Shown one piece after another: positions 1 to 32,382 of a stretch of DNA of 45,811 nt. The notes beneath the pieces were generated by a model, which worked only from the letters and a program-made list of their open reading frames with translations, made no database searches and had not been told where the DNA came from. The DNA lies in contig DATFDV010000295.1 of assembly GCA_035251855.1 (NCBI GenBank), positions 1 through 45,811 on the forward strand. Reading direction: 5' to 3'. Every line of letters starts with the position of its first letter. Within the stretch, counting starts at the first letter, position 1. The translations under genes and the position numbers were made by a program. This DNA is from Burkholderiales bacterium (GTDB lineage Bacteria; Pseudomonadota; Gammaproteobacteria; Burkholderiales; SG8-39).

Positions 1-141
1 ATGATCGCCAGCGCTCGTCAACAGCGTGGTCGAAGTCTCGGCGTAGAGATCGGAGAGGGCGATCCGGCATTCATGCGACGGCGTGGTGTCCTGGTAGGAA
101 ACCCACGCTTTACCGTCGGCCATCAACATGGCCGATTCGAG
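1..141. repeat. Terminal direct repeat, identical to 45671-45811 (assembly overlap of a circular or circularly permuted molecule)
   Basis: Read directly. Both copies run atgatcgccagcgctcgtcaacagcg ... catcaacatggccgattcgag. Confidence 0.95.
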
Positions 142-2381: not shown

Positions 2382-3304
2382 AGAATCTCTCTCGTCTCGC
2401 GCATGGGCAGGCTCTCGAACTGATAGAGCAGCCCGAGCGCCTTATTCTTGTTGACGATCTCCCAGCGAAAGGTCGAGATCAGGCACTGCACCGGCACGTC
2501 GAATTCCCCCGCCCAGGTGAGCGCGTCGGTCGCCTGCGGGTACTCGAACGCCGTGCCGCCGCTCGCCGTCAACCCGGCGGTCGAGGTCGCGAGCGTCCAG
2601 GTAAACGGCCCGGCGCCGGTCTTGTTGCTGATCGTGTGCGCGAGATTGTTGAGCGTTGCGGCCGCGGTGCCGGTGACGCCGGTCAAATACACCTTCTCGC
2701 CGATCGCGAGGCCGGCCATATCGGTCGCCGTCGTGAATACGTGCGTGGCGCCCGGCGTGTGGCCGGTGACGGACTCGCTGTCGTTGGCAACGAAGGTGAC
2801 GATGCCGGTAGAGGTCGCGAGCGCGCAGTTACCCGGCGCGCCGCCGAAGGTGACTGGCGAGGCGTTGCGGTAGATGGTGTTGGCGCCCGCGCGCGTGACG
2901 GGCTTCTGGATCGCACGATCCTTGGTCTGCCCCGAGGCGGTGTAGCGCTTGGCGAGCTGGTAGGTCGGCGTGCCGTTGCCCACGGCGGCCGCGACGAAAG
3001 TGCCGCTCTGGCCGGTCGCACCCAGGCGCCCGTTCGCTTGCGTTACCAGATAATCGGTGAGATCGGGATAGCGGAACCGGTTCTTGCGGCCCTGGGCGAC
3101 CGCGTAGAGAAAATCACGCACCGACTCGAACTGCGCCTGGCTGAGCGTCGCGTGCGCGAGATCGTAGGGCCGCAGCGCCTCCGACCAGACTGAATTCTGC
3201 ACCACCGCCCCGGAATCCACCTCCACCACCGAGTCGCTGAACTGGAGCGCGCCGCTCGTGCCGAAGGCGACCAACCGCGGGAACTGCGATTCGATGAACG
3301 CCAT
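2378..3304 (-). CDS. Distal tail protein, DUF2460-like (RcGTA g12-like)
   Basis: 308 aa. MAFIESQFPRLVAFGTSGALQFSDSVVEVDSG start typical of the family. Directly follows the tape measure gene. Confidence 0.65.
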   Translation of the reverse strand: MAFIESQFPRLVAFGTSGALQFSDSVVEVDSGAVVQNSVWSEALRPYDLAHATLSQAQFESVRDFLYAVAQGRKNRFRYPDLTDYLVTQANGRLGATGQSGTFVAAAVGNGTPTYQLAKRYTASGQTKDRAIQKPVTRAGANTIYRNASPVTFGGAPGNCALATSTGIVTFVANDSESVTGHTPGATHVFTTATDMAGLAIGEKVYLTGVTGTAAATLNNLAHTISNKTGAGPFTWTLATSTAGLTASGGTAFEYPQATDALTWAGEFDVPVQCLISTFRWEIVNKNKALGLLYQFESLPMRETREIL

Positions 3305-7548: not shown

Positions 7549-7874
7549 GCCTCGATCACCCCTTCCGAGCAGTTGAGCGTCAACTCCACGTTTTCCAGGC
7601 GCCGGTCGATCGGCGGACCGATGATCGGGAAAATCCGCGTGCCGTACTTGACCCGCCACTCGGCCGCCACGTCCGCGCGGTGCCGGATGCGGATGCGCAC
7701 GGTCAGCTCCGGATGGATCTGCTGCGCCGCGAACAGCTCGCGCGCGGCAAGCGGCTCGATCGCGGCCCATACCTCCGCCTGGTCGGCCCAGGTGACGACT
7801 TCGCCCCCCATGGCGTCGCGCGTGACGCTCTTTTTCTGCAGCGTCACGAGCTTGTTCAGCTCCGAGGAGCGCAT
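7545..7874 (-). CDS. Head-tail joining (head closure) protein
   Basis: Start trimmed to ATG 7874 (ATGA overlap). 109 aa; MRSSELNKLVTLQKKSVTRDAMGGEVVTWADQAEVWAAIEPLAARE is typical of the family. Confidence 0.7.
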   Translation of the reverse strand: MRSSELNKLVTLQKKSVTRDAMGGEVVTWADQAEVWAAIEPLAARELFAAQQIHPELTVRIRIRHRADVAAEWRVKYGTRIFPIIGPPIDRRLENVELTLNCSEGVIEA

Positions 7875-8431
7875 CAGAAGCGATACAGGCAATAGGCGCG
7901 CATCAGGTTCTCCGCCGCCTGGATCAGCGTCGCCATCTGTTTTTCGTCGCGGTTGTGGTGCGCCTCGATGTGCAGCAGGCACGCATTCCTGATCTTCTCC
8001 GGCACCGCGGCGTGCAGCCCGTAGCCCGCGACGAAGCGGATCGTGACCGCGTTCATCTGGCTGCGGATCGAGGGCCAGGTCTTGCCGTAGGCTGGCGTCA
8101 CGCGCCCGGGCGAGGATTTCACGTCCACCAGATATTCGGACGAGGCGAGCGTCTGCTCCACGCCTTCGGTGTCCACGTACTTGATCGACGTGATCGAGGC
8201 GAGCGGCGGATAGGGGATCGCGATGCCCCAGCACGGAAAGGCGTCGAGAAAGTAGTCCCAGGTCTGCGTCACGAGCCGCCGGCCGGTGAAATCCTCCGCG
8301 TGCGCCGTCGCCGCGACGATGAGCGACTGAATCAACGCATCGAGCGCGGTCTCCGTTTCGCGCAGGTGCAGCTTCGCCTCCGCGAGGGTGACCGGCTCCT
8401 CGGCGGGCGCGGTGACGAGCTTGAGTGCCAT
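7874..8431 (-). CDS. gp6-like head-tail connector (adaptor) protein
   Basis: 185 aa. ...VTLAEAKLHLRETETALDALIQSLIVAATAHAEDFTGRRLVTQTW resembles the Phage_connect_1 family. Confidence 0.7.
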   Translation of the reverse strand: MALKLVTAPAEEPVTLAEAKLHLRETETALDALIQSLIVAATAHAEDFTGRRLVTQTWDYFLDAFPCWGIAIPYPPLASITSIKYVDTEGVEQTLASSEYLVDVKSSPGRVTPAYGKTWPSIRSQMNAVTIRFVAGYGLHAAVPEKIRNACLLHIEAHHNRDEKQMATLIQAAENLMRAYCLYRF

Positions 8432-8951: not shown

Positions 8952-9851
8952 CTACCCCAGAGTGATGGAACCCAGCCCCGCATCCGCGACCGTCAGGTTC
9001 CCGCGCGCGGCGTCGGCGACGACCAACGTGCCAGGGGTCGTCGCGCCGCCAACAGACGGCACATGAAACTGCGCGCTGCTCACGAACAAGTCCGGCAACA
9101 GTGCATAGGTCGATGAAACCGACGGAGAGTAAAAGCTGTCTCCGTCCTCATACAGCGTTGCAGCAAGATCGTTGGTCGCCGCAACCGACGGACTGTAAAA
9201 CGTGTCTCCGTCGGTATAGAGCTCAGGTTCAAGAATCTGCGCTCCCACACTGACCGTGGGAGAGAAAAACGTGTCCGCATCAGCAAAGAGCGACGGAGCC
9301 AAATCCACCGCACCGGGGGCAACGGTCGCGGAAGGAAACACATCCGCATCGGTGTATAGCTCAGGCGTCAGACCGTAGCTCGCCGATACGGTCGCCGAAT
9401 GAAACGCCTGCGCGTCACTGAACAAATCCGGCGTCAAGGCATAAGTAGCGCTCGCCGTCGGAGAGAAGAAAGTATCTCCGTCCTCGTACAGAGCCGGGGA
9501 CAAACTGTAAGTCGCGCTGACCGTGGCATCGTAGAAGCTCGCCGCATTCGTGAAAAGCGACGGCTGCAGATCCTGCGGCCCGGCACTTTCCACCGTTGGA
9601 CTGTGGAAGGTGTCCGTGCTGTCGTCGAACAGTGCTGCCGTCAGCGCATAAGTAGCGCTTACCGTTGCATCGTGGAACGTGTCCGCATCTTCGTACAGCG
9701 ACGGCGTGAGTGCATAGGTCGCGCTGACCGTCGCCGCAAAAAACGTGTCGTCGTCAGTGTAAAGAGATGGCTCTAGATTGACCGCTACGACAGGCGGCGT
9801 CCCTTTCAGCGCAATCGGCTGGAAGGATTGCGACCTGCCAAGGCGAGCCAT
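8952..9851 (-). CDS. Ser/Thr-rich protein built from about 11 tandem ~22-aa repeats (L-x-P-x-L-[YF]-x-D-x-D-T-F-x-x-x-T-V-S-A-T-Y-A)
   Basis: 299 aa; the repeats are visible in the translation. ATG overlaps the stop of the upstream gene (TAATG). Confidence 0.7.
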   Translation of the reverse strand: MARLGRSQSFQPIALKGTPPVVAVNLEPSLYTDDDTFFAATVSATYALTPSLYEDADTFHDATVSATYALTAALFDDSTDTFHSPTVESAGPQDLQPSLFTNAASFYDATVSATYSLSPALYEDGDTFFSPTASATYALTPDLFSDAQAFHSATVSASYGLTPELYTDADVFPSATVAPGAVDLAPSLFADADTFFSPTVSVGAQILEPELYTDGDTFYSPSVAATNDLAATLYEDGDSFYSPSVSSTYALLPDLFVSSAQFHVPSVGGATTPGTLVVADAARGNLTVADAGLGSITLG

Positions 9852-11677
9852 TAGTATGAACTCGCTCTGCTGACAGCATGAGACACGTTATGCGTTGCGT
9901 TCGTGTGCTCGTAGTCGAACGCTATGCTGTTCGCGTAATTCGTTAGCAGCGTCTGGTTGCTGGCATCTCTCCAAGCGACCATAAAACGAGGCCCCGAGAG
10001 AGGCACCCACAACTGCCGCCAGTCTCCAAGACCTCCTGAGTACTGAACAGGTGACCCCCAACTGTCGCCGTGGTTAGTCGATTTCCTGTAATAGACGTGG
10101 GTCGCTACGCCCAGATCTTCGGTGCCGTCGTTTTTTCCGATGTAGACGGCGTAAAGATCGTCGGTAAGTAAGTCTATGAACAACCCCGAGTAATAGCAGT
10201 CGTCTACGTTGTCAGCGACGAACGCCTTAAGCTCGATATTCCCGGCGCCAATCGCCCTGACTTCGTAAACGTGGAAATCGCCGTTGGCGGTGTCGTACTC
10301 ACGATTTTTGGCCAGATACCCGTAGCCGGTCGTTTTGCTGATGGTGAATGAAAACGGGTACTGATAAGTGCCGTCCGTGGTGTTCGCCACGACAATCGTA
10401 GAATCCGGCCCCTCGGTGAAGGAATTACCTGAATCGTCGTATTCCTTGATCGTGACTTCGCTCGCGCTGCCATCCATATAGCCGAGCCACGCATCATTCG
10501 TGTCCGCAGTGGTTCCGGCCGGAGCAACAAGCACCAGATCAGTAGGCGATCCCGCGACCTCATAAGGATTGGTGCGGGCAGTCCAATTCACCCCGCCATC
10601 GGTTGATCTATAAAACCCGGTCTCATCCCCGCTGTCGCAGTCAAACGCACAGAGCAGATTGCCGCCTTTCATTTTTGCCCCGTTGACAAATCTTCCCGGG
10701 CCATCAGTGAAAGTTGCCCCAGCAAATACGACTCTCTGCGTTCCCAGCGTGTCGCCATTGGTGTCGAGCGTGCGAAAGAACACGTCATCGTTCGTGGTAT
10801 CGAAATACCACATGTAGATGAGTGTCCCGGAGTCATCCCCCGGTGTCCACTGGTCATACCAAACACCAGCCGCTACTACAGTCCCGATCAAAACCACTAC
10901 TACCGGATCGCCCCAAGTCTGCCCGCCGTCCGTGGTCTTGGTGTATTTGAAATCGAAGTCGTCATCAATGAAAAACTTGTATAAGATCGAGACGGTCGTA
11001 GCGACCAACCCCCTCCACACTCTCGCGGTTTGAGCTGCGACGATATGGTCGATAACAACGTCGCCGTTCGCCGTGAAGTCTGACGTGATAATTCGCGTGC
11101 CGGCAGACGATGAAGAACCAGTCCGAAACAAGATATCGCAAGTGGTCATCCCGCCCGCGCCCGTTCTCTCACATGCGATCTGAACGAACAGGTACTTATT
11201 GACGCAGGTAAAAGCGCCGGGATTTACCGTCAGCGTTGAATCGAAATCCGCAGACGTTGAAACGTCAGTTACTATCGATGCCTGCTGCTGTGCTGCGGTT
11301 ATCTCTGTATCAGCCCCTCCGTTGGCGTCCGCAAGGATGATGCGGAATCTAATCCTGACATCCTGTGTGTCTCCGACGCTAACCGCACGAACTACGAAGT
11401 GAAATTCCCAGTTACCGCTGGCAAACGACCCATTGAGCGGGAACGGACTTCTGAAAGCATCCTTGAGCGTTGCATCCAGAGTACCATCGGGAACAGTGGT
11501 TCCGGTAAAAGTTGACGCCGCTCTTTCAACGCCGCTGTTAAGTTCCGAGTGATTGGTAGATCCCGTGCCGACAGTCCAGCCGCTTGACGTTGTAGCCGCT
11601 GATTGTGCGGTCTCAGATAGCGCGGCCCAATTATTCTCGTTAAGCGAGTTGGTTAGATAGAAAGTTTTCGCGGCCAT
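9851..11677 (-). CDS. BNR/Asp-box repeat protein (sialidase-like beta-propeller C-terminal region)
   Basis: 608 aa. Three Asp-box motifs: TKTTDGGQTWG, RSTDGGVNWT, KSTNHGDSWG. Visibly lower GC than the flanks. Coupled to both neighbours (TAATG overlaps). Confidence 0.7.
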   Translation of the reverse strand: MAAKTFYLTNSLNENNWAALSETAQSAATTSSGWTVGTGSTNHSELNSGVERAASTFTGTTVPDGTLDATLKDAFRSPFPLNGSFASGNWEFHFVVRAVSVGDTQDVRIRFRIILADANGGADTEITAAQQQASIVTDVSTSADFDSTLTVNPGAFTCVNKYLFVQIACERTGAGGMTTCDILFRTGSSSSAGTRIITSDFTANGDVVIDHIVAAQTARVWRGLVATTVSILYKFFIDDDFDFKYTKTTDGGQTWGDPVVVVLIGTVVAAGVWYDQWTPGDDSGTLIYMWYFDTTNDDVFFRTLDTNGDTLGTQRVVFAGATFTDGPGRFVNGAKMKGGNLLCAFDCDSGDETGFYRSTDGGVNWTARTNPYEVAGSPTDLVLVAPAGTTADTNDAWLGYMDGSASEVTIKEYDDSGNSFTEGPDSTIVVANTTDGTYQYPFSFTISKTTGYGYLAKNREYDTANGDFHVYEVRAIGAGNIELKAFVADNVDDCYYSGLFIDLLTDDLYAVYIGKNDGTEDLGVATHVYYRKSTNHGDSWGSPVQYSGGLGDWRQLWVPLSGPRFMVAWRDASNQTLLTNYANSIAFDYEHTNATHNVSHAVSRASSY

Positions 11678-11865
11678 TATTCTTCTTCGTAGAACCGTTC
11701 AATGGGCGATCGAAATCCCTGAAACCAATAGCCCCACCTTCTCCAAAATGGCAGTTGATGCCACCACACCTCGTCCCATAACTGCGCGAGTTGCTGTTCC
11801 AGCAATTGCAGTCGCCGCTCTGGAGGGAGTTGAGGGCGCTCCTGAACCGGATGTCGCTCGGCCAT
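11677..11865 (-). CDS. Hypothetical Trp-rich small protein
   Basis: Start trimmed to ATG 11865 (TAATG overlap). 62 aa; ...LWDEVWWHQLPFWRRWGYWFQGF. Confidence 0.45.
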   Translation of the reverse strand: MAERHPVQERPQLPPERRLQLLEQQLAQLWDEVWWHQLPFWRRWGYWFQGFRSPIERFYEEE

Positions 11866-12335
11866 TAAATACGTTCTACGTCCATGGACGAACGCACATT
11901 GACCGTCGCAGGTGCCGTGCATCGAATCACCAGCCCCTCGGCCAAAGCCGTATCCGGCTCTTGACCGAGCGGAAACTGATAGGCGAACAGCCCTTTGTCC
12001 GGTGCCAGCAGAAACTCTTTGATTACGGTCAACGCCGTCGGCTCAGTCGTCCAGGTTTTCCCCGACGTAAACCCTGCCGTCAGCACCCGCCCATAAGTCT
12101 GACGCGGCGTTGTTGAAGTGGAATTTGTCCCCGGTGAATTGGTGGCAAATGTCGCGTAGCAAAATTCCACCAGCACCGGCACCGCGGAAGCCGTCACGCC
12201 ATCGAACGCGACCGCAAAACCTTTGCATTGGAGTCCAGAGTTCGCGTGCGCCTTGACGCCAATGATCGTTTTGGCAGTGGCAGCAGACAGCGCTACAGCA
12301 CCTTCGGTCGTGCAGGAGTACCCTGATGCGGACAT
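11865..12335 (-). CDS. Hypothetical protein (possible structural)
   Basis: 156 aa with natural composition, in the lower-GC block. Confidence 0.55.
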   Translation of the reverse strand: MSASGYSCTTEGAVALSAATAKTIIGVKAHANSGLQCKGFAVAFDGVTASAVPVLVEFCYATFATNSPGTNSTSTTPRQTYGRVLTAGFTSGKTWTTEPTALTVIKEFLLAPDKGLFAYQFPLGQEPDTALAEGLVIRCTAPATVNVRSSMDVERI

Positions 12336-12347
12336 CTGCTGCTCCTT

Positions 12348-12683
12348 TTAGTGCTTGATGCTCCGCAGGTCCATATGCGGAACTTCGATCTTTTGATGGA
12401 ACGGAAATACGTTGCGCCGATTGCCCAGCGCGTCGTAGTGCTGATCGAGCAGCAGGATGCGTACCTTCGCCACAAGCTGATCGAGCGCGTCCGCCGCGCC
12501 CTGCCGGGTTGAGTGCGACTGGCGAATCGCATTTACCAGCATATTGACTGCCGCCCCGACCACAGCCTCGTTCGGGAAGCCGTTGCACACGTTAGATAGC
12601 GCTCGGAATAGCTCCCGCTCGGCTTCCGGGCCGCTCTTGTGCAGCGGGTCTTTCTGGTTGCGTAGAGGATCGAGGCCGTTCAT
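12348..12683 (-). CDS. Hypothetical protein
   Basis: Start trimmed to ATG 12683 (ATGA overlap with the upstream stop). 111 aa. Confidence 0.5.
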   Translation of the reverse strand: MNGLDPLRNQKDPLHKSGPEAERELFRALSNVCNGFPNEAVVGAAVNMLVNAIRQSHSTRQGAADALDQLVAKVRILLLDQHYDALGNRRNVFPFHQKIEVPHMDLRSIKH

Positions 12684-13105
12684 AGAGTGAATATGCCTGA
12701 CGCATTCCACGTCACTGTGATGTCGCCTCCGTTCGGCGTGACAGGCAATCCCGTAACGCTGGTGTCGATGTAGGCGACCAGCCGCCACGTGGTATTAGCA
12801 CCCGAGTTGTGCCGGTAGATCCCCAGCGCTTCGACGCTCGCGCCACTTACTGCGGTGTAGGTGAGGTTCGCACCGTCGAACGTGCCGGCAGATACCGATC
12901 CAACCGTCGGGGCCGTGATGCGCTGATCGGTTCCGACAATGCCGGACAGGTCATTGTAGAAATCGTGCGCCGCGCTGTAGGTGTAGGTGCCCGTATCCAG
13001 CAGCGCGCAGAACGGCCCGTCGGTCGCATCGTCCACCGTCAGCGAGACGCTGGCCGACGCCGACATGAGAGCGGTCTTATAGATCGGATAGATTGCGTTT
13101 GCCAT
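12680..13105 (-). CDS. Hypothetical beta-rich protein (possible structural)
   Basis: 141 aa. MANAIYPIYKTALMSASASVSLTVDD...ITVTWNASGIFTL. Confidence 0.55.
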   Translation of the reverse strand: MANAIYPIYKTALMSASASVSLTVDDATDGPFCALLDTGTYTYSAAHDFYNDLSGIVGTDQRITAPTVGSVSAGTFDGANLTYTAVSGASVEALGIYRHNSGANTTWRLVAYIDTSVTGLPVTPNGGDITVTWNASGIFTL

Positions 13106-13116: not shown

Positions 13117-14406
13117 TTACTTCGAATGGTCGTAGCGCGCTTCCATCTCGGCCGCACTCGGCAGCTTGTCGCGCGGCGTGCGGCGCACGATCGGCCGCTC
13201 GCCGGAATCGTCCACCGTGATGTGCTCCGCGTCGTAGCCGTAGAAGCGCTCCGCTTCGGGCACGTTGGCGTCGAGCAGCGTGGAGTTCTCGGCGACCTGA
13301 ATCATCATGCCGCGCGCCGAGGCGAAACCCAGCCAGAATTCCACGCAGCCGCGACCTTTCTCCCGCGAGTGGTGCCCGGCATAGGAGAAATCGATGCCAT
13401 AGAGCCCGAGACGCTTGACGCCCAAGAAGGAAGCGTGCGCGACCGCATAGGCGACGGTGGAGTTGAAGTAGGCATGGCCGAATTTCGCGATCAGATCCTC
13501 GATCGGAAACGGCACCGAGCCCGGGTATTTATCCGGATACGCCTTGCTGGTGTAGATGGGACCGGGATGTCCGCGCAGCAGCTCCAGCATGTGCTTGATG
13601 GTCTCGTTGCCGGCGGCGGCGCGGGCTTCCTGCACCATCAGGTCGTCCATGTGGAAAATGCGATCGCACCGGATGACCCCCGCCATGCAGTTGATCGCCC
13701 ACACCTCCTCATAGAGAGCGCGGGCGCCGCCGTGAACCCCCGCGGCCGCGACAAAGGTGGACTTGGAATCGCCCATGCCGACCAGCGCCACCGACTCCGG
13801 GACGCGGTCCATCGCGCGCGGAATCGGCGAGCGCACTGCTTCGATCAGGATAGTGCGGCCGTTTTCGCCGTAGACCACCGGCGCGGCGGTATCGGCTTGC
13901 GTGAAGCACTCGCGCGGACTGAAGCCGCGCTCGCGCAGCAGCGTTTCCAGCTCGACGCGGCGATAGTGCCGAAAATGGAACGCGATCTGCGGCCGGTACG
14001 GAAACACCGCTTCGTTCGGGACGCTGACGAAAAGGTGTTCGACGCACCCGCGCAGACGTTCGAGCACCTGGCCGGGATTGGGCACGTGCTCGATCGCCTC
14101 GAACACCACCGCAGCATCGTGAAAGCCCACCGCCATCTGCGCGGCATCGCCCACACCCCACACGATGGACGGATGGTCGAAGTGCTTGCGCGCGTGCGCG
14201 ATGGCCTCGGCGTTGACATCGAAGGCGGTGACGCGAAAGCCGGCATCCGCCAGAATCTTGGCGCCGTAGCCTACCCCGCACGCGACATCGACAACCGTCT
14301 TCGCCCCAAGCTGGCGGAGCCGGTCCGCGGCCCAGAGATAGCGGGCGGTGTGGTCGGCGCGGATGCCGTCAACGGTCTCGGCGACCTGTCGTTCTCCGGG
14401 CTGCAT
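13117..14406 (-). CDS. Fusion protein: N-terminal class I SAM-dependent methyltransferase plus a C-terminal DUF115/Maf-like (putative glycosyl/nonulosonate transferase-like) domain
   Basis: 429 aa. Motif I VVDVACGVGYG then AFDV. The C-terminal half has VALVGMGDS, EVWAINCMAGVIRCDRIFHMDD and NSTVAYAVAHASFLGVKRLGLYGIDFSY. The C-terminal domain assignment is from memory of the family pattern only. Confidence 0.65.
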   Translation of the reverse strand: MQPGERQVAETVDGIRADHTARYLWAADRLRQLGAKTVVDVACGVGYGAKILADAGFRVTAFDVNAEAIAHARKHFDHPSIVWGVGDAAQMAVGFHDAAVVFEAIEHVPNPGQVLERLRGCVEHLFVSVPNEAVFPYRPQIAFHFRHYRRVELETLLRERGFSPRECFTQADTAAPVVYGENGRTILIEAVRSPIPRAMDRVPESVALVGMGDSKSTFVAAAGVHGGARALYEEVWAINCMAGVIRCDRIFHMDDLMVQEARAAAGNETIKHMLELLRGHPGPIYTSKAYPDKYPGSVPFPIEDLIAKFGHAYFNSTVAYAVAHASFLGVKRLGLYGIDFSYAGHHSREKGRGCVEFWLGFASARGMMIQVAENSTLLDANVPEAERFYGYDAEHITVDDSGERPIVRRTPRDKLPSAAEMEARYDHSK

Positions 14407-14409: not shown

Positions 14410-14646
14410 CTATTTCCCCTTGCCAGGCGCTGCACTTTTGGAGCCGGCCGCGGCCGTTTCCTCCGGCGGGCGCGTCGCGGTCTCGCGGCGAGCGGCCGCA
14501 ACCGGTGACGCTTTCACGGGATCGACGGCGACGGCGTAGCCGCCGGCAACGAGTGCCGCGCCCGTCTCGTTATCGACCGTGACGGTGTCACCTGGCCCAC
14601 CGCTCAATGTCGGGCCGGCGAGGATGGTTCTGAGTTTGACTTGCAT
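14410..14646 (-). CDS. Hypothetical small head-module protein
   Basis: Start trimmed to ATG 14646, preceded by AAGGAG. 78 aa; MQVKLRTILAGPTLSGGPGDTVTVDNETGAALVAGGYAVAV. Confidence 0.55.
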   Translation of the reverse strand: MQVKLRTILAGPTLSGGPGDTVTVDNETGAALVAGGYAVAVDPVKASPVAAARRETATRPPEETAAAGSKSAAPGKGK

Positions 14647-14656
14647 CGGAGACTCC

Positions 14657-15019
14657 TTAGCCGACCACGACGTGGATCGTGCCTTGCTTGGTATTGCCGC
14701 CAGCGACCACGTCAACCTTCACGCGCTCGCCCGCTACCACCACGTCGCGCACGACCCCGGTCACCACGCCGCCGGTGGCGGTGTGTGCCGGCTGCGTCGG
14801 CGCGTTGGTGAAATCCGCGGCGACATTCGCCTTGGAGAGGATGGCGGCCCCGGTCTCCGCGGCGGTGATGGTGAAGTCCGCGGTGCTCGCAAGCGCCACC
14901 GCCGCGGTCGCCTTGATGTAGCGGATGGCGGCGATGCGGCCGGTCACCGGCGGCGTGTAAGCGGTCGCCCCGCCGCCGGTGGCGGTGACGAAGGTGACGG
15001 TATGGCGTTCGGCGTACAT
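14657..15019 (-). CDS. Hypothetical beta-rich protein
   Basis: 120 aa, in the operon downstream of the capsid gene. Confidence 0.5.
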   Translation of the reverse strand: MYAERHTVTFVTATGGGATAYTPPVTGRIAAIRYIKATAAVALASTADFTITAAETGAAILSKANVAADFTNAPTQPAHTATGGVVTGVVRDVVVAGERVKVDVVAGGNTKQGTIHVVVG

Positions 15020-15026
15020 GGCCCGC

Positions 15027-15251
15027 TCAACCCGTCGCCAGAATGCCGACGTTGGTCAGCGCCGCGCGCATCGCCTCGATCTTCGCGGCAATGCCGGTGC
15101 TGAACGTGCCGGTCGCGGTGATCGCCGCGATCGCGGCCGCCTGCGAGAGCACGCCGCTCGAGGAGCACTTCTGGATCTTGCCACCGGCTTTCACGGCCAT
15201 GGCGTCGCCGCCCTGTACCATGAAGACTTTGGTGCCGTAGGTATTGCTCAT
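15027..15251 (-). CDS. Hypothetical small protein
   Basis: 74 aa. MSNTYGTKVFMVQGGDAMAVKAGGKIQK... Confidence 0.5.
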   Translation of the reverse strand: MSNTYGTKVFMVQGGDAMAVKAGGKIQKCSSSGVLSQAAAIAAITATGTFSTGIAAKIEAMRAALTNVGILATG

Positions 15252-15327: not shown

Positions 15328-15756
15328 CTATGCGACCGGCGAGACGCGCGGCGAGTGCAGCACCGCGCTCGATCCGACGATGGTCGCCGCCGTGACGGTG
15401 GCCTTGTGGGTGAGCGAGACGTAGCGCTTGTTGCCCTTGTAGCCGATCTTCTTGCTGACGTTCTTGCTCACGCCGGAGACGTGCGGCGTGCCGGCGGCGA
15501 GGCCGGCATCGGCTTCGGTGCCCAGCAGGTCGGTATCAGCCACCGAAGCAAGCGAGCCGGTGGCGCTGCCCTCCTTGACGATGACGCTGAACACAGAATC
15601 CGTCGCCGTGCGGGTGCCGTAGTTGATGACGAACTCGACGCCGTGGTAGCCGTGGCGGTCGATCACCTTGCCGGCCTGGCCGGCCGCCGTCGTGTTGAGC
15701 GCAGCGGGCGCACGCACGACTTGAATCTTCGCGTTGTTGTGCAGATCCTGTTCCAT
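15328..15756 (-). CDS. Hypothetical protein (possible head decoration, by position only)
   Basis: 142 aa, immediately downstream of the major capsid gene. Confidence 0.5.
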   Translation of the reverse strand: MEQDLHNNAKIQVVRAPAALNTTAAGQAGKVIDRHGYHGVEFVINYGTRTATDSVFSVIVKEGSATGSLASVADTDLLGTEADAGLAAGTPHVSGVSKNVSKKIGYKGNKRYVSLTHKATVTAATIVGSSAVLHSPRVSPVA

Positions 15757-15834: not shown

Positions 15835-17190
15835 TTAGGCCAGCTTCACCCGCACGAACGCTTCGGCGAGCGTGGGCATGCCGTCGCTTTCCATGCGGCC
15901 GATGAAGCCGACCTGGTTGGTCTCGGCGTAGAGCTCCACGAGGCGCTGGAACTGCATGTCGAGCGCATCGCAGATCCAGTAATGCGAGAAGTCCGCGAAC
16001 ATGCCGACATAGAGTCCAGTGGTGAAGGTGTTGGGCACGTATTCGCTCATGCTGAGCGGACGCCCCAGGATGGTGTCTGGTTCGCCTTCGCGCACCGACT
16101 GCCTCCAGAGGTACTGGCCTTCGCCGTCCTTCAGCTTCGCGATCTGCTTCAGCGCGTCGCGGTGGAACAGCCATTCCGCGCGGCTCCAGTACTGGCCTTT
16201 CAGCGCGTACTTGGCGTTTATCAAGCCGTCGAAAGTCACCTGGGTCGTCAGGTTATCGGTGGACACGTCGCGCGAGGTCGGCACGCCCGAGGCGCTGGCG
16301 GTGAACAGGCCCAGCGGCTGGCCGGCGCCGTTGCCGGTCAGGAATGCCTTCTCGTGGGTGATGCCGAACTTGTAGGCGAGCCGCGAGGTCACCAGGCCCT
16401 CGACCCCGGACACGGTGCGGAGCAGCTTGTTTGAGACCTTGATGCGCTTCGCGACCGGCGCGGGCTTCAGCTCGCGGCGGCCGAACGCCATGGTGCTGTC
16501 TTCGCTGCCGGTGCCAAGCTCTGTGGTCCAGTCCGCATCGGCCGGGTCGGCATCGAGCGAAGGCGCGCCCATCGCCTGCGATGACGTGACCGTGAACTTG
16601 GTCGCCTTCATGCGAATGAAGGTCTCATCGTCCACCGCCTGAATCAGACGGTTGACGAATTCAAGCGGCGGCGCCATATAGCCGCCGGCCGGGTCGGAAC
16701 CCAACTGCAGGGCGCGGCGCTCGTCGGCATTCAACTCCGCGTAGCCGCTGCGCATGAAATGATCGAGGGCGCGCAGCACCACTTCCTTGTCACGCGCGCC
16801 CGGCAAGCCGCGTTCGGCTTCCCGTTCGGTCTCGCGGCGCTCGAGATCGCTCGCGGCGGCGGCACGCTCGGCCTCCTGGAGCTGCTCTTCGCGCTTGATC
16901 TGGTCGGCGACCTTACCCTGCTCGTCGATCAGCTTGTCGAACGCTTTCTGCTCATCGTCCGTCAGGGCGCGCTTATTGTCGGCCTCCGCCTTGTCGAGGA
17001 TTGCGCGCGCATCGGCCACGAGCTGGCCGCGCTTGTCGCGCAGCCCCTTCAGCGTGACGGCCGCCGCCGGCGCAAGAAGGATATCGACCACCATCCGCGG
17101 ATCCACATAAGCCGCCAGCACCTCGGGCGCCACCGTTGCGGCCAGCACGGCGATCACCACCACAGCGAACAGCAGGGCGTTCGATTTCAT
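15835..17190 (-). CDS. Major capsid protein, HK97 family
   Basis: Start trimmed to ATG 17190, preceded by GGAGGT. The track ORF extends into the protease gene. 451 aa with a coiled-coil delta-like region (...DDEQKAFDKLIDEQGKVADQIKREEQLQEAE) followed by the HK97-like body. Confidence 0.85.
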   Translation of the reverse strand: MKSNALLFAVVVIAVLAATVAPEVLAAYVDPRMVVDILLAPAAAVTLKGLRDKRGQLVADARAILDKAEADNKRALTDDEQKAFDKLIDEQGKVADQIKREEQLQEAERAAAASDLERRETEREAERGLPGARDKEVVLRALDHFMRSGYAELNADERRALQLGSDPAGGYMAPPLEFVNRLIQAVDDETFIRMKATKFTVTSSQAMGAPSLDADPADADWTTELGTGSEDSTMAFGRRELKPAPVAKRIKVSNKLLRTVSGVEGLVTSRLAYKFGITHEKAFLTGNGAGQPLGLFTASASGVPTSRDVSTDNLTTQVTFDGLINAKYALKGQYWSRAEWLFHRDALKQIAKLKDGEGQYLWRQSVREGEPDTILGRPLSMSEYVPNTFTTGLYVGMFADFSHYWICDALDMQFQRLVELYAETNQVGFIGRMESDGMPTLAEAFVRVKLA

Positions 17191-17282: not shown

Positions 17283-17915
17283 TTATCGGGCTTCGGCCTC
17301 GAGCAGCGCGAGGCGGAGCCGCCGCTGGCGCGCGGCAATGATTGCCGCGGCGCGGCAATCGGCGGCGTTCTGCGTCTGCGTGCGCCGCGTCTCCAGGGTG
17401 CGCAGCGCGACGTCGGTGGTCGGGAAAGCGGGAAAGGTCACCGGCGAGACGTCGAAGAGCTCCACTTCGAGCAGCGTACGCAGCGGGATTTCCTCGCTTT
17501 CGTCCCATTCTTCCCGCATCATCTTGAAGCCGAAGCTCATCTGGGACACGTCGCCGCGGGCCACCGGTGCCAGCACCAGGTCGCGCACGAGCTGGGTGTC
17601 GGGCGGGCTGATGTCGATCGCGAGCCCGACGGCGTCTTCCGACAGGCGCAGCGTGCCGGCGCGGTTGCGGCCGAGCACCCAATCTTCGTCGTGGTTGAAA
17701 AGCGCGCGCACATCGTCCTCCGCGATCGCGCGGCGGAAGGCCCCGGGTGCTATGCGCTCGCGGAACCAGCGGCCGATCTTCACCGTCTGGTTGAACACGG
17801 CGGCATGCCCCATCAGCCGCGCGCCGCCCTCGGCGCGGGTTTCGACGCGCATGGCGTCGGCGGTGAAGGTGCGCCGCTCCAGGTCGGGCGCAGAAGCGCG
17901 GTTCTCGCGTGGCAT
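17283..17915 (-). CDS. HK97-family prohead protease
   Basis: 210 aa. ...LMGHAAVFNQ...ERIAPGAFRRAI...VRALFNHDEDWVLGR resembles the family. Confidence 0.8.
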   Translation of the reverse strand: MPRENRASAPDLERRTFTADAMRVETRAEGGARLMGHAAVFNQTVKIGRWFRERIAPGAFRRAIAEDDVRALFNHDEDWVLGRNRAGTLRLSEDAVGLAIDISPPDTQLVRDLVLAPVARGDVSQMSFGFKMMREEWDESEEIPLRTLLEVELFDVSPVTFPAFPTTDVALRTLETRRTQTQNAADCRAAAIIAARQRRLRLALLEAEAR

Positions 17916-17918: not shown

Positions 17919-19232
17919 CTAGCCCTCCGTTCCAGTGCGTGCGGGTGGATCCATCATCGGGTCGTCGCCTGCGGGCGGCTCGGGATCCGGCGCCATGTCA
18001 GCCTTGCCGACCGGCGGCATGATCTCGCCCATCTCGTCGATCACGGTCATGTTGAGCGGCATACGCGCTAGCGAAAGCCCGGGCAGCGGATTCAGGTTTT
18101 CCTTCGCGCGCGCTTCGTTCGGCAGGAGCCACCCGGCGGCAATACCGCTGCGGTAGGCTTCATACCGGCTCTTCTGGTCGCCGCGGAGCAGCGCCGTGAC
18201 GTTGTGCTCGACGTAATGCGTTGCTTCCTCGCCTTCATTGAAGAGATCGCGCTCGACGCATTGCTCGTAGCGCGTGCTCCACGGCGTCAACGTGTGCACC
18301 ACGAAGCCGATCTGCCGCTGCTCGACGCCGGTGCCCCAGCTCGTGGTCTTGGTGGTCGAACCGATCATGTCGGGCGGCACGCGGTAGATGCGTGCGATAT
18401 CCTCGGTGGTCTTCTCCGAGAGTGCCACGTACTGGGCGTCCTCGAGGGTCATCCCGATCTGGTGCCACTTCATCCCCTCTTCGAGGATGGCGACCTTGCC
18501 GGTGTTGGCGAGACCGCTGTAGATCTCGTCCCACTGTTTTCTCAACTCCGGCAGCGCGTCGCCCAGGCGCGCCGGGTGCTCGATCACGCCCGAGAGCCGC
18601 GTGCCGTTGACGAAGGTGCGCCCGCCGTGCTCCTGGAGTGCCGCGGCAAAGCCCAGCGCTTCGCGGTGCAGCGCGATCGGCGAGACGCCGCGCAGTCCGT
18701 CGAAGCCCAGGCCTGCCAGGTGGAAGAGCTCGCCGCGCAGAAACACGCGCTTGCCACCCTCGGCCGGGAAGTAGGCATAGGCGACGTCCTGCTGCTGGCT
18801 GCGCCAGAACGGCCACACGCGGTCCGGGTGCAGCGGGATCAACTGGTCAACGCCGCGCCCGCCGGTGCCGACGATCTGGGCGTAGGCGTTGCCGCGCAGC
18901 AGGCAGTGCCCGATCATCATCTCGCGGAACTGCATGGCGGTCTGCCAGCGGTTCGGACGAGCATTGAGGATCGAATAGAGCCGGTGCGAACGGTCGATCT
19001 CGCGGCCGTCGTCCGCGCGCCGCCGGTAGACCGGCAGCGGCAGCATGGCGAGCGTCTCCGCGATCAGGCGCACGCAGGCGAAGACCGCGATCAGCTCGAG
19101 CGCCGTGTCGGGCGTGATGCGGTTGCCGAGCACGGTGTTGTTCGAGCCGAACCACGCCGCGAGCGCCGGATCGCGCGGGTGCAGCGGATCCACCGCCGTC
19201 GCCCGCGTTTCCAGCCTGGAGAGCCAGCCCAT
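17919..19232 (-). CDS. Portal protein, HK97 family
   Basis: 437 aa. Position and family-like sequence. Confidence 0.85.
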   Translation of the reverse strand: MGWLSRLETRATAVDPLHPRDPALAAWFGSNNTVLGNRITPDTALELIAVFACVRLIAETLAMLPLPVYRRRADDGREIDRSHRLYSILNARPNRWQTAMQFREMMIGHCLLRGNAYAQIVGTGGRGVDQLIPLHPDRVWPFWRSQQQDVAYAYFPAEGGKRVFLRGELFHLAGLGFDGLRGVSPIALHREALGFAAALQEHGGRTFVNGTRLSGVIEHPARLGDALPELRKQWDEIYSGLANTGKVAILEEGMKWHQIGMTLEDAQYVALSEKTTEDIARIYRVPPDMIGSTTKTTSWGTGVEQRQIGFVVHTLTPWSTRYEQCVERDLFNEGEEATHYVEHNVTALLRGDQKSRYEAYRSGIAAGWLLPNEARAKENLNPLPGLSLARMPLNMTVIDEMGEIMPPVGKADMAPDPEPPAGDDPMMDPPARTGTEG

Positions 19233-19266: not shown

Positions 19267-19527
19267 TTATTTGTCCTTGGCCGGCGCCGTCGGGCGGCGC
19301 AGCACCACCAGCGCGATCAACAACGCGCCGCACACGATCCAGGCGAGCGCCGGGCGCTCGAGCCACAGGCCGTAGAACAGCGCGGCGAGGCCGGCGACGA
19401 ACACCACGTCCCGCAACTCCGGCGCCGCCAGGCGCGCGAGGGCAAGCCAGCGCGCGCGGCGCTCGGTGCGGCGCTGGCGGCGTGCCACCAGCTCGGCTTC
19501 GGTGTGCGCGCGCGGGCTACCCCACAC
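19267..19527 (-). CDS. Small membrane protein (2 predicted TM segments)
   Basis: 86 aa, GTG start. VVFVAGLAALFYGLWL and LAWIVCGALLIALVVL are hydrophobic stretches. Lies between TerL and portal. Confidence 0.45.
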   Translation of the reverse strand: MWGSPRAHTEAELVARRQRRTERRARWLALARLAAPELRDVVFVAGLAALFYGLWLERPALAWIVCGALLIALVVLRRPTAPAKDK

Positions 19528-21544
19528 TGACCAGCCCCCGCGTCTTGTAGACGCTTTCCTTGACCGGATTGGCGATGCGCCGCGCGAGCGTCATGAGGAG
19601 CCCGATCACGCCGTCGATCTTGTTCTCCGGTCGTTCCTTGTTCGGGTAGATGTTGTCCTTGCGGTCGCGGTGGCACACGACGTTCGATATCATCCACTCG
19701 AGCACCGGATCGCCGTCGTGGTGGAATTTGCCCTGCAGCACGAGCTCCTCGAGGAACTTCATCGGCTCCGAGAAGTTGAGCACCGTCGGGCGCATCTCCA
19801 CCATGGTGTAGCCGTCCTCGATCATCTCGCCGGCAAACTGCGTCAACTGCGCCGGATCGAACGCGATCTCGGTGAGGTTGTGCCGGCCGGCATCGCCAGG
19901 CACCTCCGGCCGCGCGCCACGAATCAGCGCCGCGCGCGCCGGGCCCGCCCGCTTCACCAGCGCCGCGGTGCCGATCAGATCCTCCCGCACCGCCTCGATG
20001 TCCACCACTTCGCCCGGCGTTTCGACGATCAGGCCATGCTCCGCCCAGCTCTTCAGGTGGTCGTTGCCCTTGAGGTTGAGCATGCGCGCCGGCGCGTAGT
20101 AGCGGCCGAACGCGTAGTAGTGCCCGCTCTTCTCGAACAGCTTGACCTTGGCGAACAGGTCGGTCTTGAACGCGGCGTCGAGTGCCGCGATGCAGTCCGC
20201 GCCCGTGAACTCGTCCTCGGCGAGCTCCGCGTCTTCGCAGCGGCGCCAGGCCGCCATGTCCATCCAGGCGACGTCGGCGTTCAACCACTGGTTGCAGCGC
20301 TTGGTGCGGAACTCGCTCTGCTCCGATGGCATCGATAGCGCCCGCCGGCACTGCGCCCGCAGGTCCGCGAGGAGGCCTGCGGCATACGCCGCGTTGTGCG
20401 TCGCGAGCAGCATCGGGTTCGCCTTCGCCCATACCGCTTCATCACCCCAGTCGTCGTCCGCGCGCTTGTCGCCGTACGAGTCGTCGAGCGTGTAGATCAG
20501 CCCGAAGTAGGTCTCGTCCTCCGCCGTGCCGCCCTTGATGGTGTAGCCCAGGCCGCCGTGCCGGTGCAACACGGCATTCAGGATCTTCACCAGGTAGCTG
20601 CGCTGCGCGTAGCACACGCCGCTGCGGTCGGTGCCGGCGGTGGTGATGCCGATTCCGAGCGGCTGCGAGCGCCCGCCGGTCGAGCTGTCGAGCACGTCAT
20701 AGAGGCCGCGATCCTTCTGCGCGTGCATCTCGTCCGAGATGAAGCAGCTCGTGTTGAGCCCGTCGAGCGAGCCATAGTCACGGGCCAGCGGGGTGAATTT
20801 GCCGCCGTTGCGCGTGCAATACATCCGGCTCTTGTTGAACGCGACGCCGAGCTGCTTGAATTCCGGCTGCCGCCGCACCATCTCGCACGCCACCTCTTCC
20901 CAGATGATCTTCGCCTGGTCTTTCTTGGTCGCGGCCGTGTAGACCTCGGGCCCCTCCTCCCCATCTATTGCGAGCATGCCGAGGGCGAGCGCCGCGAGCA
21001 GCGTCGATTTCGTGTTCTTGCGCGCCTCTTCGAGATAGGCCCGGCGAAAACGCCGCAGCCTGTTGTCCACCCGTAACCAGCCGAACAACACGGCGATAAA
21101 GAAGGCCTGCGCGTCCTCCAGCACGATCTTCGGGTAGACCAGACCCTCTTCGGTGCGCTCGGGCTTCGCCAGGTCGCCCTTCACGTGCGGCATCAGTTCG
21201 ACAAACTGGCACCAGCGGATCGCTTCCTCGCAATCGAAGTAAAACGGCCAGGCCTCGTCGCGTGCCGCCACGCGCGCAAGGTCATCGAGCTGGCGCTGGC
21301 ACGCGGCCTTCACCCACTTGCACGCCAGAATGTCGCCGGCGATCACGCGCCGCGCGTACGATTCCGCCCGCGCCACATAGTCGGCGCGGGCGGGCGCGTG
21401 GTCACGATCGCAGAGTGTTTTTGAGTTTCGGTCCAGCACGCAGTCCACGCCCGCGAGAGTCGGCGACACATCCTCCGTAGCGTTCGCCATGGCTTCGAAA
21501 GCCGGCTGAGTCGCGGCTACCTCGGAGCCGCTGTCTGGCGGCAT
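19517..21544 (-). CDS. terL: Terminase large subunit
   Basis: About 675 aa. ATG 21544 overlaps the TerS stop (TGATG). Terminase_1-like sequence, e.g. ...CFISDEMHAQKDRGLYDVLDSSTGGRSQPLGIGITTAG. Confidence 0.9.
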   Translation of the reverse strand: MPPDSGSEVAATQPAFEAMANATEDVSPTLAGVDCVLDRNSKTLCDRDHAPARADYVARAESYARRVIAGDILACKWVKAACQRQLDDLARVAARDEAWPFYFDCEEAIRWCQFVELMPHVKGDLAKPERTEEGLVYPKIVLEDAQAFFIAVLFGWLRVDNRLRRFRRAYLEEARKNTKSTLLAALALGMLAIDGEEGPEVYTAATKKDQAKIIWEEVACEMVRRQPEFKQLGVAFNKSRMYCTRNGGKFTPLARDYGSLDGLNTSCFISDEMHAQKDRGLYDVLDSSTGGRSQPLGIGITTAGTDRSGVCYAQRSYLVKILNAVLHRHGGLGYTIKGGTAEDETYFGLIYTLDDSYGDKRADDDWGDEAVWAKANPMLLATHNAAYAAGLLADLRAQCRRALSMPSEQSEFRTKRCNQWLNADVAWMDMAAWRRCEDAELAEDEFTGADCIAALDAAFKTDLFAKVKLFEKSGHYYAFGRYYAPARMLNLKGNDHLKSWAEHGLIVETPGEVVDIEAVREDLIGTAALVKRAGPARAALIRGARPEVPGDAGRHNLTEIAFDPAQLTQFAGEMIEDGYTMVEMRPTVLNFSEPMKFLEELVLQGKFHHDGDPVLEWMISNVVCHRDRKDNIYPNKERPENKIDGVIGLLMTLARRIANPVKESVYKTRGLVSVG

Positions 21545-22095
21545 CAACGCACCAGGCTCGCGAGCGTCGGCTTCGCCGGCGGCGCCTCTTTCTCGCCTCC
21601 CTTGTCATCGCCCGGCTCCATCCCGGGCAGAAACGGATAGTTATCCGACGGGGTCACGCGCGATCGCGCGCTCGGCGCCAGGCCGAACGCCGCCACCGCC
21701 TTCTCATAGCGTTCTTGCGACTTGACCGAGATCTGCAGGTAGACCGACTGCATGCGGTAGCCCGAGGGCGCCTTCTCGATCAGCCCGGCTTCGCCCGACT
21801 CGTCACTGCGGTTCGCCGCGAGGATCTTCTTCTCAGCCCACACCCAGCGCGCGTACTCCTGGCAGCCCATCGCCAGCATGCCGCGATCGAGCAGCGAGAT
21901 CAGGCCGTAGCGGTGGAGCTCCTGGACGAGACGATTCCACTCGCGCCGGGCGTCCGGCCACAGCACCTTCGGGCAATCCGGGATCTCGACCTCGGGCTTG
22001 AATTCCCCGAGGAGCTGCGCGATCGGCTTTTTGCTCGGGTTTCCCTTGAGCAAATGCACGTTCGCGGGCAATGGTTTCGGCCCACGCTGACCCAT
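21544..22095 (-). CDS. terS: Terminase small subunit, P27 family
   Basis: 183 aa. MGQRGPKPLPANVHLLKGNPSKKP is the typical P27-family N-terminus. Confidence 0.85.
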   Translation of the reverse strand: MGQRGPKPLPANVHLLKGNPSKKPIAQLLGEFKPEVEIPDCPKVLWPDARREWNRLVQELHRYGLISLLDRGMLAMGCQEYARWVWAEKKILAANRSDESGEAGLIEKAPSGYRMQSVYLQISVKSQERYEKAVAAFGLAPSARSRVTPSDNYPFLPGMEPGDDKGGEKEAPPAKPTLASLVR

Positions 22096-30154: not shown

Positions 30155-30393
30155 CCACAGCACTCATCCACCGGCTCAACGCCGACGTCGTCGAATTCGT
30201 CGGCCGCTGTGGCGACGCGAAATTCCAGGCGGTCGAGATCAAGATCGAGGGCGTCGAGAGCGCCTACATGATGACGCTCGCGCTGCCCGCGTCCACCTGC
30301 CGCGGCCTCGCCGGGCGCGTCAACCCCGAGGCGGTCTATCGCGCGATCTGTCGCGCCATCAATGATTCCGGTGTGGGGATCGCGCTCCCGTGA
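30151..30393 (+). CDS. Hypothetical protein
   Basis: 80 aa, translationally coupled. Confidence 0.5.
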   Translation: MTTALIHRLNADVVEFVGRCGDAKFQAVEIKIEGVESAYMMTLALPASTCRGLAGRVNPEAVYRAICRAINDSGVGIALP

Positions 30394-30434
30394 TCCCGCA
30401 CGCCGCCGACACACCAGCAGAGAAGGAATCCATC

Positions 30435-30872: not shown

Positions 30873-30910
30873 TCATTCAACCATTCAGCCATTTTTTTCG
30901 GGAGACATCC

Positions 30911-32343: not shown

Positions 32344-32382
32344 GCGCTGTCTTTTCATCCCCCGCCATCCCCGGAGGTAATC

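Follow-up and report, generated by a model that had tools for sequence, protein, structure and literature searches.

The stretch of DNA analysed here (the window; 45,811 nucleotides of contig DATFDV010000295.1, which comes from a rhizosphere metagenome) carries a phage whose late genes form a long operon of tightly packed genes on the minus strand. In this operon we find a gene for a 429-residue enzyme, which opens with ATG, closes with TAA and joins an N-terminal methyltransferase to a C-terminal domain (CD) with a predicted MptE-like and GT42-like fold. The open reading frame (ORF) given for it in a preliminary description is borne out by the ORF listing and by a guanine-cytosine (GC) content of 0.69/0.45/0.83 at the three codon positions, a pattern typical of coding sequence; the genome as a whole has 66% GC. 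The gene starts 3 nt past the stop of the preceding gene, and 11 nt with an AGGAG lie before the next start. Its location within the structural operon, also claimed in that description, is confirmed by the gene order from PHROGs and Pfam, which places it in the head-to-neck stretch. The head module lies upstream, and a 142-residue protein encoded there is the conserved partner of the enzyme. All coordinates are collected in Table 1.

The N-terminal domain had been described as a methyltransferase dependent on S-adenosylmethionine (SAM), and this is well supported. Residues 19-163 match Methyltransf_23 (48.6 bits, gathering score 27), Methyltransf_11 (43.7 bits, gathering score 21.2) and Methyltransf_25 (42.1 bits, gathering score 27), and Methyltransf_12 is likewise above its gathering score. 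A profile of 63 homologues finds solved methyltransferases in the PDB at 1e-11, and a Foldseek search with the AlphaFold2 model of the full-length protein (predicted local distance difference test score, pLDDT, 91) reaches methyltransferases (3cc8, 3l8d, UbiG) at E=4e-10. Beta and alpha elements alternate in the model of the domain. SAM motif I, quoted earlier as VVDVACGVGYG, is found at residues 38-48, the acidic residue after strand 2 is D63 in AFDVN, and E5, R6, V8, D40, G44, G46 and G48 are invariant or nearly so among the homologues. The fold neighbours are small-molecule, sugar and RNA-ribose enzymes (UbiG, NodS, CcbJ, Hen1). Neither a DNA-methyltransferase family nor a target-recognition domain is detected in the enzyme by Pfam, NCBIfam or Foldseek. 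A stand-alone relative of the domain with 39% identity is found in the Manatee Spring podovirus (MW202713.1, 2165-6581), just upstream of the terminase, near a sugar aminotransferase of the DegT/DnrJ/EryC1 type and an ORF annotated as 'glycosyltransferase tibC', which has no Pfam match. These genes may form a different phage-encoded cluster for glycan modification.

The CD is far more remote from known families. PHROGs and NCBIfam match only the methyltransferase part and give nothing for the CD, and nothing but noise comes back for it when PDB sequences are searched, whether the query is the single protein or a profile. PF01973 (now named MptE-like, formerly DUF115 or MAF_flag10) gives sub-threshold matches in 43 of the 63 full-length homologues. 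The CD was modelled separately (pLDDT 88, predicted template modelling score 0.88), because the fold search with the full-length protein was swamped by methyltransferases. With this model, Foldseek recovers from the PDB SteA (probability 1.0), the sialyltransferases Cst-I (0.97), Cst-II (0.96) and human ST8SiaIII (0.94), and MptE (8sd5, 0.92). The BFVD matches of the model are a 'DUF115 domain-containing protein' (6.5e-5) and phage proteins named 'MptE-like' (2.8e-4 and 3e-2). The template modelling (TM) scores of 0.38-0.46 to members of the PF01973 fold correspond to similarity at the superfamily level.

Three sequence patterns had led to the earlier assignment of this part to the DUF115/Maf type, namely VALVGMGDS, EVWAIN..CDRIFHMDD and NSTVAYAVAHASFLGVKRLGLYGIDFSY. 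All three are present, at residues 206-214, 234-255 and 315-342. Of the assignment, the remote fold homology stands, as the sub-threshold PF01973 matches and the fold searches indicate, and structure prediction, one of the checks proposed for it, recovers the expected relatives including the viral DUF115 and MptE-like proteins. Membership at the Pfam level is not supported: searches with profile hidden Markov models (HMMs) place the methyltransferase families above threshold, and the window protein does not reach MAF_flag10/DUF115. The narrower identification as a Maf protein has to be given up, with neither the flanking Maf domains nor a flagellar or nonulosonate context being found. By three independent lines (the weak PF01973 matches, the fold searches and the alignment with Cst-II described next), the CD is a remote relative of the MptE-like/DUF115 and GT42 fold, and neither a Pfam-level DUF115 member nor a Maf, since it lacks the flanking acceptor-binding domains that Maf proteins require.

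Conserved motifs point more closely to one site. In local profile-sequence comparison (hhalign) with Cst-II, whose sequence was identical to that of PDB 1ro7, the family consensus VAILGLGPS falls on VIIAGNGPS, and the second motif, YFNsT..AYAVAyA..LGvkkI.LfG.DFtY, falls on YFNQRITSGVYMCAVAIALGYKEIYLSGIDFY; both motifs are collinear. Global alignment of the two proteins was meaningless, and only the local modes were informative. It is in the donor-binding region that Cst-II is similar to Maf_flag10, the PF01973 domain, according to work on Maf proteins (bioRxiv 10.1101/2020.06.03.131540). At the first motif the window protein has GMGDS instead of the family's GLGPS, a position that varies in the family, and it retains every family-invariant residue. 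Altogether 38 columns of the CD are invariant, including N239, D248, D254, Q259, R262, T286, S287, N315, T317, D339, H346, E349, R352, C354, E356, D379, D392 and H427. They are mostly polar, with D, H, E, R, N, C, S and T prominent among them, and this pattern of a putative active site points to an enzyme. Y342 aligns with Tyr156 of Cst-II, and the residues that follow (343-349) form a low-confidence loop (pLDDT<50) with the invariant H346. In Cst-II, according to what Chiu et al. reportedly described in 2004, His188 is the catalytic base, and Tyr156 and Tyr162 bind phosphate.

The enzyme family is large and hardly annotated. A word-indexed search gives more than 637 matches, nearly all of them full-length fusions, and an exhaustive HMM search with the CD profile gives 3915 cluster representatives at E<=1e-3, with 350 at E<=1e-30. 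Homologues carry at most the public name 'class I SAM-dependent methyltransferase'. IMG/VR holds at least 359 loci or contigs with the CD family. For 80 IMG/VR loci and for 41 loci from species-representative genomes the gene neighbourhood was analysed; the pattern-based scans of loci can overlook divergent members, in monoderm hosts for instance. Among GenBank phages, a phage-wide tblastn search finds no full-length homologue; its only matches are one to the methyltransferase alone and a weak one to the CD alone, the latter in a Microcystis phage. In each context examined the gene lies within a phage head module, with head genes on one side and neck genes on the other and tiny gaps to its neighbours, and not at the position of a moron. 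Prophage copies are common, and the gene is also present in contigs without recognisable lysogeny genes. A literature search on DUF115 or MptE-like proteins in phages, on 8CJZ and on MptE structures found nothing relevant.

The methyltransferase is an optional add-on that has been joined to the CD several times independently. The fusion seen in the window occurs in 43 of the 80 IMG/VR loci. In three others (L011, L039 and L047) the class I methyltransferase fused ahead of the CD is a different one, and two representatives (P0127 and P0143) show the reverse order. The CD stands alone in the remaining loci, and about 40% of loci are without any methyltransferase. As the fusions arose independently and in both orders, the two activities would belong to one pathway, with the CD as its core activity. 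One stand-alone CD (P0100, at 2873-3592 of its locus, L001) is 73% identical to that of the window and has no methyltransferase nearby. A 189-residue ORF upstream of it was considered as a split methyltransferase and rejected; it is a gp6-like connector. Another stand-alone CD, with 29% identity, is found in Microcystis phage Mvi-Yong1342-1 (6680-7483 of its locus, L006), where it is annotated as 'type 11 methyltransferase' without having such a domain; the label looks carried over from the fusions.

The association of the CD with the 142-residue protein holds in both directions. When loci are sampled by the CD, a homologue of this protein is encoded directly upstream in 77 of 80, the three exceptions being contigs that begin at the enzyme gene. 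When they are sampled by the basic subfamily of the 142-residue protein, the CD lies downstream in all 73 loci with enough sequence. Among prophages in species-representative genomes, 36 loci have enough room upstream and 33 of them contain the pair; at least 8 phyla are represented, and the hosts are Alpha-, Beta- and Gammaproteobacteria, Desulfuromonadales, Planctomycetota, Flavobacteriaceae, Armatimonadota and Terriglobia. A second, acidic subfamily of the 142-residue protein, which includes Azospirillum phage Cd gp34, Rhizobium phage RHph_X2_25 and Bradyrhizobium phage ppBeUSDA76-1, has neither a CD nor a methyltransferase within 3.5 kb in any of 80 loci. Proteins encoded downstream of the enzyme were also considered as conserved partners and rejected, because they are non-homologous between loci.

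The two subfamilies differ strongly in composition, as a comparison of 65 sequences with the CD and 68 without it shows. The net charge is +3.2 ± 2.0 with the CD and -6.0 ± 2.1 without it, the Ser+Thr content is 19.8% vs 14.3% and the Asp content 4.2% vs 8.3%. Positions 70-71 are T-S with the CD (94% and 98%) and A-A without it (78% and 88%). A loop of seven residues (89-95, consensus A-A-T-R-T-S-G) is present with the CD and absent in all sequences without it, and the acidic patches of the latter (DADA, DDD) are replaced by T, S or K. The major capsid proteins of the same two sets, taken as a control, show no shift (charge -7.0 vs -6.1) and no fixed differences. The window's own 142-residue protein has A70-S71 and the loop AGTPHVSG. 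Within the CD-positive set, presence or absence of the methyltransferase tracks no column, no Lys/Arg change and no change in composition of the 142-residue protein, which is consistent with its acting on the transferred group.

The 142-residue protein is probably an external capsid cement or decoration protein, an assignment of moderate confidence for which its gene position, its size and a profile-profile match to known cement proteins speak. In all loci it is encoded directly after the major capsid gene. It belongs to no Pfam family, and a PDB search with the family profile gives a single match, full-length and collinear at E=2.3 (not significant), to chain B of 8cjz, a 'capsid decoration protein'. 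This chain is the cement protein of Cobetia phage Carin1 and is 52% identical to gp8 of Salmonella phage epsilon15, whose record relates gp8 to the BPP-1 cementing protein. When a profile of 133 family members was compared with one of eight cement proteins, an alignment of 90 columns had a probability of 80.5% (E=1.3e-5).

These observations are most economically explained if a virion protein is modified. More specifically, we tentatively propose, with the chances leaning slightly against us, that this late two-domain enzyme modifies the phage's own capsid surface via the cement protein. We infer a cytoplasmic, late-expressed transferase, in which the CD would bind a nucleotide-activated donor supplied by the host. 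It would move an anionic group from the donor to Ser or Thr of the cement protein, the candidate sites being T70-S71 and the A-A-T-R-T-S-G loop. The fused methyltransferase would then methylate the transferred group as an optional tailoring step. The modification would thereby set the charge and chemistry of the capsid surface, and would take the place of the negative charge that is borne by Asp in the enzyme-free subfamily.

The most likely donor would be an ulosonic acid activated by cytidine monophosphate (CMP), such as CMP-3-deoxy-D-manno-oct-2-ulosonic acid (CMP-Kdo), since the closest motifs are those of a CMP-sugar site. Three further points speak for such a donor. Among the window ORFs scanned there are no genes for sugar or donor biosynthesis; all 41 genome loci are in diderm lineages, and diderm hosts make CMP-Kdo; and Maf enzymes accept CMP-Kdo in E. 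coli (bioRxiv 10.1101/2020.06.03.131540; PMC11339370). The sugar-type genes beside the methyltransferase relative of the Manatee Spring podovirus lend it additional support. In its fullest form the proposal would be that a minimal Maf/GT42-like transferase, often fused to a methyltransferase and widespread in phages of diderms, puts ulosonic-acid glycans such as Kdo, sometimes methylated, on a basic cement protein, so that a glycan coat supplies the negative surface. This form is possible, and we regard it as doubtful.

Several points weigh against the proposal. The CD of the window protein has no Pfam match, even when the C-terminal half of the protein is searched alone at E<=10. The PF01973 matches of its homologues reach 16-28 bits against a gathering score of 34.6 (best E=2.4e-6) and are confined to about 29 residues, at positions 142-170, where the profile ends. 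The Foldseek matches in the PDB are weak (E 2e-3 to 3e-2, TM 0.41-0.46), and the members of the fold that are not glycosyltransferases, SteA and the adenosine triphosphate (ATP) pyrophosphokinase MptE, score level with the sialyltransferases. Catalytic His188 of Cst-II has no confidently aligned counterpart in the CD. The cement assignment is itself one of remote homology (E=2.3 in the PDB profile search), and the charge shift between the cement subfamilies could have another cause. The two subfamilies are moreover two clades, so the perfect association with the CD could reflect one ancestral acquisition followed by linkage. Selection on the pair is suggested, on the other hand, by a methyltransferase that has often been gained or lost and a CD that has never been lost, over many phyla and at identities as low as about 45%.

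Because MptE and SteA score as high as the sialyltransferases, phosphoryl transfer stays a live rival, although an unlikely one. The CD would then be an ATP-dependent phosphoryl or pyrophosphoryl transferase like MptE that acts on the cement protein or on a small molecule; capping of the phosphate, or of the product, would fall to the methyltransferase. This explanation can draw on the Pfam fold being named after MptE, on the MptE fold match and on the conserved acidic FHMDD cluster, which could bind Mg2+; the partner's loss of acidic residues would be accounted for equally well by a phosphate put in their place. The best-aligned motifs are nevertheless those of the CMP-sugar site of Cst-II, the methyltransferase relatives adjoin sugar-modifying genes, and we know of no protein pyrophosphorylation by an MptE-like fold.

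If the acceptor were sought outside the virion, the enzyme might alter lipopolysaccharide, capsule or another glycan of the host surface, either for superinfection exclusion or against re-adsorption to lysed cells. GT42 enzymes do act on lipooligosaccharide, the methyltransferase resembles those of sugars and small molecules, and many copies lie in prophages. We still consider such a conversion of the host envelope improbable: the gene is embedded between head and neck genes and not in a moron position, it is strictly associated in both directions with one subfamily of a capsid-linked protein, and it is also kept where lysogeny genes are not recognisable. Much the same low probability is assigned to a CD without catalytic activity, serving as chaperone or assembly factor for the basic cement protein, with the methyltransferase as the sole enzyme, perhaps one that methylates Lys or Arg of proteins. 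This role would fit the strict pairing with the basic subfamily, as well as the top fold match, SteA, which is described as a regulator and not an enzyme. The 38 invariant columns are mainly polar and of catalytic type at the donor-site positions of Cst-II, however, and the loci that have a CD and no methyltransferase are difficult to reconcile with it, as is the independence of methyltransferase presence from Lys/Arg and every other cement-protein column.

The preliminary description had suggested a different substrate. A Maf-like nonulosonic-acid transferase would glycosylate the 299-residue repeat protein and be linked with the 608-residue BNR protein, all being encoded in one late operon. 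Both proteins exist and the Ser/Thr-rich repeats are real: there are ten of 22-23 residues, with 23.7% Ser+Thr in the protein, visible at the protein level only, since Tandem Repeats Finder finds no DNA repeat in the gene. The label 'sialidase-like' is not supported: the 608-residue protein has three Asp-boxes, lacks a FRIP motif and matches none of the sialidase families of Pfam. It has no counterpart among GenBank phages either. Homologues of the two proteins occur in none of the 80 IMG/VR enzyme loci (the 41 genome loci were not searched for them). Both genes lie in a low-GC cassette. Homologues of the two genes at its ends are separated by about 3.4 kb in cyanophage Pam2, a phage that gave no CD match in the phage-wide tblastn search. 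As the enzyme also lacks Maf acceptor-binding domains, we judge this link very unlikely. Modification of the phage DNA or its nucleotides before packaging is hardly credible, because, although phages often encode DNA methyltransferases and the gene is expressed at packaging time, the methyltransferase resembles UbiG, NodS, CcbJ and Hen1 rather than DNA methyltransferases, has no target-recognition domain, and is associated with a capsid protein subfamily and not with replication genes.

Table 1. Position of the enzyme, its partner and their neighbours in the window
Feature	Position	Strand	Remark
Enzyme gene	13117-14406	-	429 residues; methyltransferase and MptE-like/GT42-like domain
Methyltransferase domain, residues 1-195	13822-14406	-	Class I, SAM-dependent (Pfam)
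SAM motif I	14263-14295	-	VVDVACGVGYG
CD, residues 196-429	13120-13821	-	MptE-like/DUF115 and GT42 sialyltransferase-like fold, from remote homology and model
CD motif G-x-G-x-S	13765-13791	-	
CD motif FHMDD	13642-13656	-	
CD motif YFNST..LG..L.LYGIDFSY	13381-13470	-	
142-residue protein	15328-15756	-	phrog_5707; probable capsid cement/decoration protein, candidate acceptor
Candidate modification site S71	15544-15546	-	In the 142-residue protein
Candidate subfamily-specific loop, residues 89-95	15472-15492	-	In the 142-residue protein
Large terminase	19517-21547	-	PHROGs/Pfam
Portal	17919-19232	-	PHROGs/Pfam
S78/HK97 protease	17283-17915	-	PHROGs/Pfam
HK97-type major capsid protein	15835-17190	-	phrog_10 major head protein, E=1e-72; upstream of the pair; likely start 17190, listed ORF extends to 17682
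Three small late genes	14410-15251	-	74, 120 and 101 residues, the last with DUF7302/connector-like matches; between cement-like gene and enzyme
Low-GC accessory cassette	8952-13105	-	GC 54-57%; between head and neck genes; outside the conserved enzyme system
Wing-arm-like protein, 141 residues	12680-13105	-	Match to PDB 9d93 at E=1e-5 ('tail wing arm gp31'); 55% identity with Pam2 gene 64
Asp-box protein, 608 residues	9851-11677	-	
Repeat protein, 299 residues	8952-9851	-	31% identical to part of Pam2 gene 68
Head-tail adaptor	7874-8431	-	PHROGs/Pfam; neck and tail genes next

The small genes between the cement-like gene and the enzyme are also present in two other loci (L064 and L077), are missing from most and vary in arrangement. 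The cassette is probably a horizontally acquired side-fibre ('wing') module, accessory and specific to the window phage; its 608-residue protein and a 156-residue protein have no counterpart in Pam2. An ORF of 146 residues (12348-12788) overlaps the 3' part of the wing-arm-like gene by 109 nt, and its GC by codon position is ambiguous.

The same 141 nt stand at both ends of the window (1-141 and 45671-45811), which makes the contig either circular or terminally redundant; the unit is 45,670 bp long. Tail genes run across the window ends, among them those for a DUF2460 protein (2378-3304), a gp84-like hub (1329-2381) and an Rcc01698-like protein (43136-45799). The window also encodes a ParB-like protein of 584 residues (32383-34137), a DUF5131 protein of the phage Gp37/Gp68 type (36942-37952) and a tyrosine integrase (38273-39271), and the phage is probably temperate. 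A diversity-generating retroelement is found at 30390-36945. Its reverse transcriptase (RVT_1) is encoded by the ORF at 35575-36945, the true start of which is probably later, and the ORF at 35222-35578 may encode the accessory Avd protein. The template repeat, at about 35743-35885, precedes the reverse transcriptase, and the variable repeats, at about 30751-30896, 34551-34693 and 35066-35208, lie at the 3' ends of the ORFs 30390-30872, 34160-34669 and 34705-35184. In the 63-nt core of these repeats all differences are at template adenines.

The enzyme is always found with the basic, Ser/Thr-rich version of the cement protein, and this suggests chemical modification of the head surface in many phages of Gram-negative bacteria. 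If this is true, post-translational decoration of capsids would no longer be confined to a few actinobacteriophages but would be shared by a large set of phages and prophages whose hosts include Proteobacteria, Planctomycetes, Bacteroidota, Acidobacteria and others. The virion proteins of Gram-negative phages would be O-glycosylated by an enzyme family that today has no functional annotation, and the CD would represent a new minimal, protein-modifying branch of the MptE/Maf/GT42 fold. Thousands of proteins labelled 'class I SAM-dependent methyltransferase' or 'hypothetical' would gain a function. A compact pair of enzyme (about 230 residues) and acceptor (about 140 residues) would further be available for displaying sugars on protein nanoparticles; Maf enzymes have already been explored for glyco-engineering (PMC11339370).

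Among known systems, the Maf glycosyltransferases, which attach nonulosonic acids to flagellin, belong to the same fold superfamily as the CD. The predicted reaction is also alike, being an O-modification of Ser/Thr with an acidic ulosonic sugar on a surface-exposed structural protein that polymerises. Flagellin glycans are often methylated further, and Maf proteins have about 600-650 residues. Their central domain is accompanied by N- and C-terminal helical or tetratricopeptide repeat (TPR) domains for acceptor binding (bioRxiv 10.1101/2020.06.03.131540), or by a GlfM partner. The enzyme described here differs in having only a core of 234 residues, with no helical or TPR domain in the model, in falling below the PF01973 gathering score, in its directly fused methyltransferase and in its predicted acceptor, a capsid cement protein. 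Its contexts are phage head modules, and no flagellin or nonulosonate genes are found among the window ORFs scanned.

The GT42 enzymes Cst-I and Cst-II of Campylobacter jejuni (1ro7, 2p2v) resemble the CD in fold, in the donor-site motifs and in size (about 230-260 residues). The identity is about 15%, the CD has no PF06002 match, and His188 and the lid are unaligned. Cst enzymes sialylate lipooligosaccharide and not protein, and they are missing the features that are invariant in the CD family (FHMDD, H..E.GR.C.E and a C-terminal beta-hairpin with RYDH). MptE, an archaeal 6-hydroxymethyl-7,8-dihydropterin pyrophosphokinase (8sd5), and SteA share the fold of the CD (Foldseek 0.92-1.0), and PF01973 now bears the MptE-like name. 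MptE uses ATP and a pterin in cofactor biosynthesis, whereas SteA is a regulator of cell division, and neither has a phage, capsid or methyltransferase context.

Virions of mycobacteriophages (Che8, Rita and others) are reported to be glycosylated by phage-encoded glycosyltransferases (Freeman et al. 2023, as summarised in PMC11256854). So far as that summary goes, the likeness is a functional analogy, in that enzymes of the phage covalently decorate the capsid with glycans made from host precursors. The cases it covers involve conventional glycosyltransferases, the major capsid protein and Actinobacteria of the monoderm type, whereas our case has diderm hosts, an MptE/GT42-like fold and, as predicted acceptor, a dedicated cement protein. 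With this precedent, and with the enzyme family present in hundreds of viral contigs, the earlier remark that such an enzyme would be unusual for a phage was overstated. Glycosylation in mycobacteriophages is also said to act on the tail tube. A dedicated cement protein as acceptor is described in neither the Maf nor the mycobacteriophage systems. The cement proteins of epsilon15 (gp8), BPP-1 and Carin1 resemble the 142-residue protein in being encoded directly after the major capsid gene and in size (130-152 residues). The identity is very low (18%), those cement proteins have no accompanying enzyme, and the 142-residue protein is basic and Ser/Thr-rich and carries a unique loop of seven residues.

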